In this document: positions 8,722-10,799 of the stretch, in pieces
How positions within the stretch are numbered: the first letter of the stretch is position 1
Layout of the letters: each line of letters starts with the position of its first letter
Assembly (NCBI RefSeq): GCF_988243305.1
Contig: NZ_OZ547136.1
DNA: 64,000 nt
Direction: 5' to 3' (one strand)
Program-made: the position numbers and the translations under genes
Notes under the pieces: model-generated
What the model was told of the DNA's origin: nothing
The model's database searches: none
What the model saw: the letters and a program-made list of their open reading frames with translations, nothing else

Positions 8722-10503
8722 GTGAGCGATATTGTTTACCTGAGAATAATCGGTGAGAAGCAGGGCGATATTTCTTCAGGCTGTGGGACGTATGCGTCGG
8801 TTGGTAATCGCTGGCAGGTTGGCCATGAAGATGAAATTTTTGCCTTTGCACTCACCAACGCCATTACCAGTACTGGTAAAGGCGTTAATCTACAGGGGCT
8901 ACAATTTTGCAAACTCATTGATAAAAGCTCACCGCTACTGTCTAATGCCATCAATCAGAATGAGCGGTTATTTATTGAAATCGATTTGTATCGTATAAAT
9001 AAAAGCGGGCGCTGGGAACGGTATTATTATATTCAGCTAAGAAATGCTTCATTAACTGCTATTCATGTAAACATTTCTGACAATAATCTTCCTACCGAAT
9101 GTGTAACTGTCGATTATGACTACATATTATGTAAACATCTAATAGCCAATACGGAATTTGACTGGTTGGCCTTTCCTGCTGGCTATAATAGCTTATTTAT
9201 TCCACCTAAAAACCCACCTGCCAGTAATCTTAACCCTGAGCCGCTACCAGTTGTTAACCTTCCACTCTCTCCACCAGCGGTTAAACCGGTCTATGCCAAA
9301 TCCTGTCTGAAGGAGAAGGGATGTACAGATGCCGGAACGGCAGAAGAACCCGCTGAAAACTTCGGGCAAGTAGCGATTTTTGCTCTGCCAGTGGTTGATG
9401 ACTGCTGTGGATACCACCATCCGGAGGCTAACGATGTTGGGCAACCCGCAGAAGCTCAAACCATGCTACTGTTTCCGGGTAGCGTATTGGCGGCTCAAAT
9501 ATGGGGAAAATGGTCGCTCAGTGGCGTACTCAGTGCAACCCGTGGCTCTTACATCGGTGCGCTGGCATCTGCTTTGTATATTCCCTCTGCGGGCGAGGGC
9601 AGTGCTCGCGTGCCTGGACGTGATGAGTTCTGGTATGAGGAAGAACTGCGGCAGAAAGCACTAGCAGGCAGTACCGCCACCACCCGGGTGCGTTTTTTCT
9701 GGGGAACTGACATTCACGGCAAGCCTCAGGTGTATGGTGTTCATACGGGTGAAGGTACGCCGTATGAAAACGTCCGCGTGGCTAACATGCAGTGGAACGA
9801 GCAGACGCAGCGTTATGAATTTACCCCCGCTCACGATGTCGATGGCCCCCTGATTACCTGGACGCCGGAAAATCCGGAACATGGGAATGTTCCGGGCCAT
9901 ACCGGTAACGACAGGCCGCCGCTGGATCAGCCCACCATTCTGGTGACGCCGATTCCGGACGGTACAGATACCTATACCACGCCGCCATTCCCGGTTCCTG
10001 ATCCGAAAGAATTCAACGATTATATTCTGGTTTTTCCGGCGGGATCCGGTATTAAGCCCATCTATGTTTACCTGAAGGAGGATCCGCGAAAGCTGCCTGG
10101 TGTTGTAACAGGGCGCGGCGTCCCGCTTTCATCAGGAATTCGCTGGCTGGATATGTCGGTATCCAATAACGGCAACGGCGCGCCAATCCCGGCGCATATT
10201 GCTGATAAATTGCGCGGACGGGAGTTTAAAACCTTTGATGAGTTTCGCGAGGCGCTGTGGCTGGAGGTGAGTAAAGACTCAGTGTTATTGGCGCAGTTTA
10301 TAAAAAGTAATCAGAATAACGTTAGTCAAGGATATTCCCCCTATGTCCCTGAGGAGGGGTATTATTACGGACCAAATGAGATAGTTAAGAAATTCCAGAT
10401 ACATCATGTAGTTGCTATAGAACATGGTGGTGGAGTGTATGATATTGATAATTTTAGGATTGTTACGCCCCGACTACATGATGAAATTCACTACAGGAGA
10501 TAA
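8722..10503 (+). CDS. T6SS Hcp-family protein with C-terminal extension: Hcp domain, Pro-rich linker, pyocin-S-like region, colicin-E9-type HNH DNase (putative antibacterial effector)
   Basis: 593-aa ORF, GTG start. N-terminus MSDIVYLRIIGEKQGDISSGCGTYASVGNRWQVGHEDEIF...DKSSPLL...LYR resembles Hcp tube proteins. C-terminus ...GAPIPAHIADKLRGREFKTFDEFREALW...GYSPYVP...QIHHVVAIEHGGGVYDIDNFRIVTPRLHDEIH closely parallels the colicin E9/E7 DNase H-N-H motif. Not present at this locus in K-12 as I recall it. Confidence 0.85.
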   Translation: MSDIVYLRIIGEKQGDISSGCGTYASVGNRWQVGHEDEIFAFALTNAITSTGKGVNLQGLQFCKLIDKSSPLLSNAINQNERLFIEIDLYRINKSGRWERYYYIQLRNASLTAIHVNISDNNLPTECVTVDYDYILCKHLIANTEFDWLAFPAGYNSLFIPPKNPPASNLNPEPLPVVNLPLSPPAVKPVYAKSCLKEKGCTDAGTAEEPAENFGQVAIFALPVVDDCCGYHHPEANDVGQPAEAQTMLLFPGSVLAAQIWGKWSLSGVLSATRGSYIGALASALYIPSAGEGSARVPGRDEFWYEEELRQKALAGSTATTRVRFFWGTDIHGKPQVYGVHTGEGTPYENVRVANMQWNEQTQRYEFTPAHDVDGPLITWTPENPEHGNVPGHTGNDRPPLDQPTILVTPIPDGTDTYTTPPFPVPDPKEFNDYILVFPAGSGIKPIYVYLKEDPRKLPGVVTGRGVPLSSGIRWLDMSVSNNGNGAPIPAHIADKLRGREFKTFDEFREALWLEVSKDSVLLAQFIKSNQNNVSQGYSPYVPEEGYYYGPNEIVKKFQIHHVVAIEHGGGVYDIDNFRIVTPRLHDEIHYRR

Positions 10504-10799
10504 TGTATATGCATGATTTAAAAGATAAAATATATTTTTACACAGAAGGTGAATTTCTTGAAATGCTTGAGGAGATAGTAAATGCAACTAGCAAAGATAA
10601 ATCCCTAAAAGGGAAAAAATTAGAAAAATATCTCGATACCTTAGTGGATCATTTCATTAAAATTACTGAACATCCTAAAAAGGGAGATCTCATTTTCTAT
10701 CCTAATTCCCAAGAAGATGGTGAACCTGAAAACATCCTGAAAATCGTCAAAGAATGGCGGCGTTCGCAAGGATTGCCTTTGTTCAAAGATTCAGAATGA
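10503..10799 (+). CDS. Colicin/pyocin DNase immunity protein (Im7/Im9 family)
   Basis: 98-aa ORF; YTEGEFLEMLEEIVNA...HFIKITEHPKKGDLIFYP...ILKIVKEWRRSQGLPLFKD aligns by eye with Im9 (YTEAEFLQLV...HFEEMTEHPSGSDLIYYP...VKQWRAANGKSGFKQG). ATG overlaps effector stop (TAATG); AGGAGA RBS 3-8 nt upstream. Confidence 0.85.
   Translation: MYMHDLKDKIYFYTEGEFLEMLEEIVNATSKDKSLKGKKLEKYLDTLVDHFIKITEHPKKGDLIFYPNSQEDGEPENILKIVKEWRRSQGLPLFKDSE

Follow-up and report, generated by a model that had tools for sequence, protein, structure and literature searches.

The usp-imu locus in the aroP-pdhR interval

The window analyzed here, a stretch of 64,000 nucleotides, carries between aroP and pdhR a long open reading frame, usp (Hcp-ET3-4), and immediately downstream of this DNase gene, on the same strand, a single immunity gene, imu. 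The usp gene, named for the uropathogenic-specific protein that it encodes, serves widely to mark uropathogenic E. coli. The features of the locus, in window coordinates, are as follows.

8284..11064, no strand assigned: PAIusp island, 2781 bp in place of 263 bp of K-12 aroP-pdhR intergenic sequence
8335..8340, plus strand: TGGTAT, -10 hexamer of the divergent aroP P3 promoter, kept in the alignment of the window, UTI89 and K-12
8722..10503, plus strand: usp (Hcp-ET3-4), a specialised Hcp effector gene assigned from its ORF and domain matches; 593 aa, GTG start, TAA stop at 10501-10503
8722..9159, plus strand: N-terminal Hcp/TssD tube-protein domain, residues 1-146 (NCBIfam, Pfam and PDB matches)
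9160..9645, plus strand: Pro-/Cys-rich linker, residues 147-308, no recognised domain
9646..10071, plus strand: Pyocin_S / probable inner-membrane translocation (IMT) domain, residues 309-450 (Pfam PF06958, E 3.2e-40)
10099..10494, plus strand: colicin/pyocin H-N-H DNase domain, residues 460-591 (Pfam Col-Pyo_DNase PF21431, PDB ColE9)
10273..10799, plus strand: polymorphic cassette of the window-type (third) allele, i.e., the last ~76 Usp residues (immunity-binding region and H-N-H motif) and imu
10402-10407, plus strand: catalytic H561 and H562 (ColE9 alignment)
10450-10452, plus strand: catalytic N577 (ColE9 alignment)
10477-10479, plus strand: catalytic H586 (ColE9 alignment)
10489-10491, plus strand: catalytic H590 (ColE9 alignment)
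10495..10499, plus strand: AGGAG Shine-Dalgarno of imu inside the last usp codons, anti-Shine-Dalgarno duplex -7.4 kcal/mol
10509..10799, plus strand: imu, Imu3-type Im-family immunity protein, probably 96 aa (the longest ORF runs from 10503, 98 aa)

The boundaries of PAIusp were set by megablast of the window against K-12. GC content is 31-43% at both ends of the island compared with ~55% in the flanking DNA; direct repeats or other mobility signatures were searched for at the flanks and none were found. Outside the island, collinearity of the window with K-12 is broken only by a diverged yad fimbrial operon, and a T6SS gene cluster is absent from the 64 kb. The aroP-pdhR interval is the island site in all usp-positive genomes (PMC7142922), and the usp locus of the window occupies this site; in RefSeq genomes including UTI89 (UTI89_C0121), a tssD and a bacteriocin immunity gene are annotated in this interval, matching the window locus. 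The aroP P3 promoter has been reported as the sole promoter driving usp, with TyrR activating and H-NS repressing it (PMC7142922). An Rfam scan of positions 8000-11400 at E <= 0.1 returned zero matches, and neither Usp nor Imu was matched by the PADLOC defence models. The minus-strand ORFs beneath the usp/imu region are 42-46 aa at most and are without support.

Domain architecture of Usp

NCBI lists the exact Usp protein on 243 contigs, under the name E. coli TssD/Hcp. Usp scored 123.5 bits against NCBIfam TIGR03344 (cut-off 58.9), Pfam T6SS_HCP (PF05638) matched residues 28-139 (E 1.2e-12), and PDB Hcp 6a2v matched the N-terminal domain (E 3.9e-15). Linker residues 147-308 were without a match in Pfam and PDB, and the Pyocin_S region that follows was matched by PDB 3mfb (ECA1669; E 1e-17). 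Import of pyocin G across the inner membrane needs an IMT domain, and 97.6% of T6SS colicin-DNase effectors have one (PMC9040868); by analogy with this pyocin G work, the Pyocin_S segment of Usp is probably an inner-membrane translocation domain and not a second toxin. The window protein has the architecture of Hcp-ET3-4/Usp, in which an Hcp/TssD N-terminus is joined to Pyocin_S and colicin DNase modules (TIGR03344, PF05638, PF06958, PF21431).

A preliminary description of this DNA, made from the sequence, had implied a colicin by its title. That implication had to be given up, since the protein is a T6SS Hcp-Pyocin_S-DNase fusion encoded in chromosomal PAIusp. A true colicin-type diffusible bacteriocin, imported via an outer-membrane receptor, would account for the homology of the DNase and immunity protein to ColE9/Im9 and ColE7/Im7 and for the Pyocin_S domain, which is common to nuclease bacteriocins. 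However, the N-terminus of Usp is an Hcp domain, with no Tol/Ton translocation and receptor domains, and full-length ColE9 (5ew5, 7nsu) aligns solely to Usp residues 452-591. A lysis gene after imu is absent, there being no plus-strand ORF of at least 40 aa between imu and pdhR. The LexA box CTGT-N8-ACAG, with one mismatch allowed, was not found between 6179 and 19218, matches in the whole window being at chance level, and colicin-type SOS control of usp was rejected for lack of a LexA box upstream. Finally, the locus is chromosomal with no plasmid match (0 among 579 places in one search and 0 among 1857 places in another). We therefore regard a diffusible colicin as barely credible. With high confidence, the region represents the 3′ end of usp and the immunity gene imu in chromosomal PAIusp, usp encoding a T6SS Hcp-fused DNase effector.

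The H-N-H DNase domain

The C-terminal end of the 593-aa usp ORF reads QIHHVVAIEHGGGVYDIDNFRIVTPRLHDEIHYRR, followed by the stop. Pfam PF21431 covers residues 460-591 over model positions 1-124 of 124 (E 3.9e-43), and the PDB ColE9 DNase aligned with residues 453-591 (E 4e-33, 50% identity). The earlier reading of the last 130 residues as an E9/E7-type DNase was thereby upheld, and since structures of the ColE9 DNase have been solved, this degree of identity already settles the fold. The catalytic signature HH...DIDN...H..IH was likewise borne out by the alignment, in which ColE9 H102, H103, N118, H127 and H131 correspond to Usp H561, H562, N577, H586 and H590, so that all H-N-H residues are kept. 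ColE9 E100 is replaced by Q559 in the window Usp, and the same Q is found in UTI89 Usp (KKFQIHH). A preprint (bioRxiv 10.1101/2020.04.29.068437) reports that the DNase activity of pyocin S8 needs a glutamate in the H-N-H motif. The Usp of strain Z42 showed nuclease activity (PMC3685522); UTI89 and Z42 are alike in their uspI-type locus layout.

The experiments proposed in the preliminary description, namely toxicity with and without immunity, H-to-A mutants and an in vitro DNase assay, have already been published for the UspI allele (PMC3685522). In that work Usp was a non-specific DNase dependent on the H-N-H motif, H-N-H mutants being inactive; Usp expressed alone was lethal, and the adjacent OrfU1 neutralised Usp and co-purified with it (PMC3685522). 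For the window-type Usp allele, DNase activity and toxicity are predicted by analogy with this literature on other alleles.

The immunity gene and its start codon

Pfam Colicin_Pyocin (PF01320) matched residues 7-95 of the 98-aa ORF downstream of usp (model 2-82 of 82, E 2.7e-28), and its product contains YTEGEFL, HFIKITEHP, DLIFYP and VKEWR, in agreement with its earlier placement in the Im family. Against PDB immunity proteins the product gave E values between 1e-20 and 1e-13, with 1e-20 for that of pyocin AP41, 1e-19 for Im7 and about 1e-14 for Im9. Chance can by no means account for the DNase and immunity matches. It is 45% identical to Im9, and so is diverged from it as previously stated, 51% identical to Im7, 97% to UTI89 Imu3 and 66% to UTI89 Imu1. 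The DNase-binding hot spot of helix III, D51/Y54/Y55 in Im9, corresponds to D60/F63/Y64 (96-aa numbering), with one conservative Y-to-F replacement.

The preliminary description had further placed a Shine-Dalgarno inside the toxin 3′ end and the start of the immunity gene at an ATG overlapping the toxin stop. The Shine-Dalgarno is there, its AGGAG being kept in every imu cassette compared, and the TAATG overlap, formed by the usp TAA at 10501-10503 and an ATG at 10503-10505, is real in the sequence; the overlapping ATG as the actual start is doubtful. Initiation at 10503, with strict coupling to usp-terminating ribosomes and a 98-aa product, would make use of this overlap and gives the longest ORF, and the 98-aa form has been chosen by a few gene callers (3 contigs). 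Against it, the spacing after AGGAG is only 3 nt for the ATG at 10503 compared with 9 nt for that at 10509, and the sister cassettes imu1 and imu2 have no overlapping ATG, starting 6-8 nt past the same AGGAG. Moreover, the N-termini of Im7 and Im9 line up with the 96-aa product, RefSeq annotates this form, the exact 96-aa protein being found on 243 contigs, and OrfU3 as published is 96 aa (PMC3685522). A strictly coupled start also sits poorly with a Shine-Dalgarno that is not hidden by local RNA structure (z = 0.06 for structure that would hide it or the start and so enforce coupling). We consider the 10503 start quite unlikely. Since Shine-Dalgarno spacing, homologous cassettes and existing annotation all fit, imu probably starts with the ATG at 10509 and yields a 96-aa product. 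Of the translational coupling claimed earlier, coupling through proximity is plausible, with 5 nt between stop and start, but no RNA structure that would enforce it was found; the strict TAATG form is quite unlikely.

A sigma-70 promoter for imu was searched for inside the locus on the plus strand and none was found, promoter-like matches being at or below shuffle expectation. A terminator scan of the plus strand downstream of imu was also negative, and an AT-rich hairpin at 10824-10856 was no better than shuffled sequence (z = -0.63).

The C-terminal allele and the single imu gene

Comparison of window and UTI89 usp revealed 22 nucleotide differences over the 5′ 1530 nt and 67 over the remaining 252, the dense divergence starting at nt 10273, about residue 518. 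The drop in GC to 31-43% coincides with this allele breakpoint. The last 78 residues of Usp are 68% identical to those of UTI89 and JJ1886 and 99-100% identical to those of AF16, 2012C-4502 and K56-43-un; the UTI89, JJ1886 and window types make up the three C-terminal alleles distinguished. The C-terminal type goes together with the type of the adjoining immunity gene: in each of the five loci examined that have the window-type C-terminus, an Imu3-type imu comes next (5/5), and after the UTI89-type C-terminus comes Imu1 (3/3). Judged from these comparisons, the C-terminal ~76 residues and imu appear to form an exchangeable specificity cassette.

The window imu is a chimera: its informative sites as far as 10722 resemble the first AF16 imu copy, and those from 10745 onward the last. 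We read it as the product of recombination, in an ancestor with three cassettes, between the first imu copy and the last; the orphan cassettes were thereby deleted and a single imu was left.

On balance, we lean towards the window-type C-terminus and the Imu3-type gene being a third Usp toxin/immunity specificity class. If so, the terminal imu3 of classic PAIusp (UTI89, Z42) would be an orphan immunity gene against a window-type rival allele, and neither a DNA-masking protein nor a redundant UspI partner; that Imu3 was found not to bind the Usp used in the published work would then make sense. Such allele-to-immunity pairing offers a simple, testable account of the puzzling published behaviour of Imu3. 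In addition, single-imu strains like that of the window would have lost protection against other Usp alleles.

The published behaviour has led to another explanation, in which an Imu3-type protein protects by coating DNA non-specifically and not by binding the DNase in colicin fashion. Imu3 is reported to bind DNA and RNA and to shield DNA against colicin E7, and with the Usp used there it gave no tight complex (PMC3917654). However, the operon used in that study had imu1-3, with Imu3 last in the array and not adjoining usp, whereas the Imu3-type gene directly following a different Usp C-terminal allele in the five loci above looks like one half of a cognate pair. The hot-spot residues D60, F63 and Y64 are retained in the Imu3-type protein, and OrfU1 complexes with and inhibits its adjacent UspI (PMC3685522). 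Protection by DNA coating is, in our view, highly unlikely here.

Distribution

Among 5426 complete E. coli genomes, about 1050 have PAIusp. The pairing of window-type C-terminus and Imu3-type gene, at identities of at least 99%, occurred in 262 of the 5426. The single-imu layout of the window was present in just 5 of the same 5426 genomes and is common in draft assemblies. The exact Usp and Imu proteins are found in many public E. coli assemblies, one of which agrees with the window at 99.995% identity across 20.5 kb.

Proposed mode of action

We propose that one Usp protomer joins the Hcp ring; a ring can take at most one Hcp-ET (PMC13323088). A T6SS encoded elsewhere in the genome would then fire Usp into neighbouring enterobacteria, where the IMT domain may help the DNase through the prey inner membrane, possibly via FtsH, and the prey chromosome would be degraded by the H-N-H domain (H561, H562, N577, H586, H590). 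In the producer, the 96-aa Imu would be made from its own Shine-Dalgarno, 5 nt past the usp stop, and would bind the variable exosite of the DNase and block it. UPEC Hcp-ET3-4 is listed as an antibacterial T6SS effector (PMC6730261, PMC6099711); deletion of Hcp-ET3/ET4 impairs killing, and both are described as antibacterial effectors (PMC6730261). The same two reviews (PMC6730261, PMC6099711) state T6SS-dependent delivery for Hcp-ET1 and Hcp-ET2 only. By analogy with literature on other alleles, we expect that at the window locus the adjoining immunity protein neutralises Usp, that the effector acts against bacteria and that aroP P3 drives transcription.

It has also been reported that Usp is genotoxic to mammalian cells, and it is linked to isolates from pyelonephritis, prostatitis and bacteraemia (PMC7142922, PMC3917654). 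Together with the induction of usp expression by urea and temperature, this would fit a mainly host-directed genotoxin that damages mammalian DNA, with imu merely protecting the producer. Polymorphic C-terminus/immunity cassettes and orphan immunity arrays, with 1-4 immunity genes in E. coli and 7 in S. enterica subsp. salamae, argue against this as the main role. Such a pattern is a signature of interbacterial warfare, because host cells give no selection to collect immunity genes. Furthermore, an IMT domain is a feature only of toxins that pass through a bacterial inner membrane (PMC9040868). We thus consider a mainly host-directed role possible, if rather unlikely. Genotoxin and antibacterial roles are compatible and not mutually exclusive, and given the reported mammalian genotoxicity bacteria may not be the sole target of the antibacterial effector that we propose.

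The usp/imu (Hcp-ET3-4) pair is already known and was previously characterised (PMC3685522, PMC7142922, PMC6730261). With the DNase activity, immunity, regulation and effector role of usp already in the literature, the main value of this work lies in correct annotation: the right label for the feature is a polymorphic toxin fused to a T6SS Hcp protein, and colicin is the wrong one. Established in the present analysis are the domain identities, catalytic residues, island boundaries, allele structure, chimeric imu and prevalence.

Comparison with known systems

In the colicin E9/Im9 and E7/Im7 systems the toxin gene is directly followed by the immunity gene, as in the window. Some residues differ, ColE9 F86 being Y541 in the window Usp and Im9 Y54 being F63 in Imu. 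Enteric colicins have translocation and BtuB receptor domains, a plasmid location, a LexA box and a lysis gene, all of which the window locus lacks. Klebicin G and pyocins S2, AP41 and S8 have a Pyocin_S/IMT domain followed by an H-N-H DNase, as does Usp; KlebG was the best PDB match to Usp (E 8.5e-42, residues 372-591), and the AP41 immunity protein the best match to Imu. In contrast to the Hcp fusion of Usp, klebicin G and the S-type pyocins are diffusible, with receptor-binding N-termini and TonB boxes. VPA1263 of Vibrio parahaemolyticus and ECA1669 of Pectobacterium (PDB 3mfb) are T6SS effectors which, like Usp, combine Pyocin_S with a colicin DNase; their N-terminal loading modules are unlike that of Usp. 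NCBIfam NF047924 aligned with Usp residues 206-590 (E 1e-63), and with 215.8 bits, where the family requires 900, the window Usp is not a member.

The likeness is closest to Usp and Imu1-3/OrfU1-3 of PAIusp (Hcp-ET3-4/ETi, UTI89_C0121), which lie at the same aroP-pdhR site as the window locus. UTI89 Usp has the same length of 593 aa and the same order of Hcp, linker, Pyocin_S and colicin DNase as the window Usp, and as far as residue 452 each of the three segments (Hcp, linker, Pyocin_S) is 98-99% identical between the two; UTI89 and the window also share the aroP P3 region and the AGGAG at the junction with the immunity gene. The two differ in the immunity gene adjoining usp, which is Imu1 in UTI89 and Imu3-type in the window. 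Classic PAIusp islands carry three or four imu genes and orphan DNase fragments, whereas the window has one chimeric imu and no fragments, so the multi-imu layout of the classic Hcp-ET3-4/Usp islands is not seen here. Two usp subtypes have been published, uspI and uspII, accompanied by two or three orfUs (PMC3685522); both the layout and the C-terminal allele of the window fall outside this typing scheme. The window locus is, therefore, a reduced, single-immunity structural variant of PAIusp and not a different system.

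A DNase and an immunity gene form the 3′ part of a multi-domain locus

The usp open reading frame (8722..10503, + strand, GTG start, 593 aa) carries an H-N-H sequence at its 3′ end and is directly followed by a second ORF, imu, that reaches 10799. The preliminary description had read these as an E9/E7-type H-N-H DNase and an Im-family gene. A Pfam search placed Col-Pyo_DNase (PF21431) over residues 460-591 of Usp, covering the entire model (E 3.9e-43), and the comparison with colicin and pyocin DNases proposed there returned from the PDB the ColE9 DNase (residues 453-591, E 4e-33), together with ColE2, ColE7 and pyocins S2, AP41 and S8. 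The Usp DNase is 50% identical to that of E9; H561, H562, N577, H586 and H590 correspond to ColE9 H102, H103, N118, H127 and H131, and Q559 stands at ColE9 E100. The ORF 3′ of usp matched Colicin_Pyocin (PF01320, E 2.7e-28) and the AP41 immunity protein, Im7, Im8 and Im9 (E 1e-20 to 1e-14), with D60, F63 and Y64 of Imu at Im9 D51, Y54 and Y55. Given these profile and PDB matches and the aligned H-N-H and Im9 residues, the pair as first described is correct, far beyond chance.

The DNase, however, makes up only the final quarter of a protein with several domains, in the following order:

Usp residues 1-146 (+): type VI secretion (T6SS) tube-protein domain, Hcp/TssD; NCBIfam TIGR03344, 123.5 bits, cut-off 58.9
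Usp residues 147-308 (+): Pro- and Cys-rich linker without recognised domain
Usp residues 309-450 (+): Pyocin_S domain; PF06958 E 3.2e-40, PDB 3mfb E 1e-17
C-terminus (+): the H-N-H DNase domain

The N-terminal domain is also matched by T6SS_HCP (Pfam) and several Hcp structures (PDB), and the top PDB match to Usp is klebicin G, over residues 372-591 (part of Pyocin_S plus the DNase, E 8.5e-42). The Hcp-domain coding sequence contains a 30-bp near-perfect palindrome (8857-8886) with 16-nt overlapping arms, 94% complementary.

Translation start of imu

Translational coupling through a TAATG overlap had also been proposed. The overlap (usp stop/ATG at 10503) is present, and an AGGAG (10495-10499) lies 3 nt upstream of this ATG and 9 nt upstream of the ATG at 10509. 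This AGGAG recurs in the sister cassettes of strains UTI89 and AF16, with the start 6 nt (imu1) or 8 nt (imu2) further on, and the overlapping ATG is absent from both. The 96-aa form beginning at 10509 fits the Im7 and Im9 N-termini in alignment, is the form used by RefSeq and is called on 243 contigs versus 3 for the 98-aa form; the published OrfU3 (Imu3) is likewise 96 aa long (PMC3685522). The usp-imu junction showed no RNA structure beyond shuffled controls (z = 0.06). Based on spacing, sister cassettes, Im N-termini, gene calls and the unstructured junction, translation of imu probably starts from an accessible Shine-Dalgarno of its own, at a codon 5 nt beyond the usp stop. The overlap and AGGAG thus stand, but the ATG at 10509 is favoured and re-initiation of ribosomes from usp may occur but is not obligatory. 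A perfect 11-bp inverted repeat (AAAATCATCAC ... GTGATGATTTT) at 10824-10856, 25 nt past the imu stop, is not a convincing terminator, since it folds no more favourably than shuffled sequence (z = -0.63); no other was found between imu and pdhR.

The C-terminal allele and its immunity partner

The first 1530 nt of usp differ from UTI89 at 22 nucleotides and the last 252 at 67; dense divergence starts at nt 10273 (residue 518), where GC also drops. Over its last 78 residues the window Usp shares 68% identity with the alleles of UTI89 and JJ1886 and 99-100% with those of AF16, 2012C-4502 and K56-43-un, and 262 complete genomes carry this C-terminal allele at 99% identity or more. The window Imu shares 97% identity with UTI89 Imu3 and 66% with Imu1. 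An Imu3-type gene adjoins the window-type C-terminus in all five loci examined, and Imu1 the UTI89-type C-terminus in 3/3. On this pairing and identity imu3, third in the classic arrangement, appears to be an orphan immunity gene that counters the window-type allele, which would explain why Imu3 did not bind the Usp assayed (PMC3917654).

In E. coli JJ1886 (ST131; L014 15776-19939) usp is accompanied by four imu genes, and three orphan C-terminal pieces of the DNase are also present. The C-terminal region of this Usp represents another allele (77% identity to UTI89, 68% to the window), and the adjoining immunity protein shares 97% identity with Imu1, at odds with the published claim that uspII pairs with orfU2.

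At informative sites the window imu tracks the first imu copy of an AF16-like island until 10722 and, from 10745 on, the last copy with its downstream flank; recombination between the two would have deleted two orphan cassettes. The single-imu layout occurs in only 5 of 5426 complete genomes. The identical protein is indexed in 521 blocks of an assembly collection, and the layout was single at 4/4 listed places among these. Elsewhere there are up to four copies (JJ1886) or seven (S. enterica subsp. salamae). In the latter (GCA_010720555.1, L012 4912-7373) usp is followed by seven tandem Im-family genes at ~70 nt spacing, and the intervals hold no called genes; one of the seven shares 92% identity with E. 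coli Imu3, whereas Usp of E. coli and Salmonella are reportedly only ~77% identical. The complete genome closest to the window island, E. coli Z1323HEC0300 (L001 3522-5303), has an intact imu next to a usp that an internal stop (codon 403) has inactivated, a toxin-dead, immunity-only state.

The island and its surroundings

The window is E. coli chromosome, collinear with K-12 113-176 kb and 99.995% identical over 20.5 kb to an E. coli assembly in the public collections. At 8284-11064 it has 2781 bp in place of 263 bp of the K-12 aroP-pdhR intergenic region, the reported invariable usp insertion site (PMC7142922). Both island ends are low in GC, no flanking repeats were found around it, and the aroP P3 -10 hexamer TGGTAT is kept (8335-8340). 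In RefSeq the locus is annotated as tssD and a bacteriocin immunity protein, and NCBI already contains identical proteins of 593 and 96 aa (243 contigs). The island or its imu cassettes are matched in 1058/5426 complete E. coli genomes, 1053 of which contain 80% or more of the 3-kb locus.

Elsewhere in the window, a yad chaperone-usher fimbrial operon (39078-45627, -) encodes an adhesin, minor subunits, an usher, a chaperone and a major subunit. Megablast aligned none of 39169-45023 to K-12, and the flanking genes are ~97.8% identical to K-12; the entire operon is therefore an allelic replacement. The mrcB-fhuACDB region (53243-61988) is 92.6-93.0% identical to K-12 versus ~97.8% elsewhere, with an unaligned gap in fhuA (57121-57541), which probably reflects recombination or diversifying selection at this phage and colicin receptor. 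A 314-aa Rpn-family recombination-promoting nuclease or transposase-like ORF (35997-36941, +) occupies the rpnC (yadD) position, and the K-12 alignment is interrupted just downstream (36747-37042).

Proposed function

In the Hcp-ET work the Pyocin_S segment is reportedly named a second toxin, "pyocin S3". An inner-membrane translocation (IMT) domain is the preferred reading: together with FtsH it is required for pyocin G import, and 97.6% of T6SS colicin-DNase effectors possess it (PMC9040868). By this analogy the Usp segment is better read as an IMT domain than as a second toxin.

The UTI89 copy (UTI89_C0121) is described in two papers as the T6SS effector Hcp-ET3-4 (PMC6730261, PMC6099711). 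The former attributes interbacterial antagonism to Hcp-ET proteins, states T6SS-dependent delivery for Hcp-ET1 and Hcp-ET2, and reports impaired killing on hcp-et3 deletion. Since steric limits admit at most one Hcp-ET per Hcp ring (PMC13323088), a single Usp protomer would join canonical Hcp subunits in the tube. No T6SS cluster lies within the 64-kb window, and one encoded elsewhere in the genome would fire the loaded tube. The IMT domain, with FtsH, would then carry the DNase across the prey inner membrane, where the H-N-H domain would degrade prey DNA, and Imu would shield the producer from its own Usp.

Comparison with known systems

As a complete colicin system usp-imu fails on every feature compared: the translocation and receptor domains are absent from Usp, no LexA box was found for usp, no lysis gene was found at usp-imu, and the locus is not plasmid-borne. 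The likeness to colicin E9/Im9 is at the level of enzyme and inhibitor. The DNase/immunity pair is genuine but was known before, with experimental characterisation on other alleles: Usp expressed alone is lethal, is a non-specific DNase with an essential H-N-H motif, and co-purifies with the adjacent OrfU1, which inhibits it (PMC3685522). The feature is a member of the Usp/Hcp-ET3-4 family, from which it differs only in its C-terminal allele and single immunity gene.
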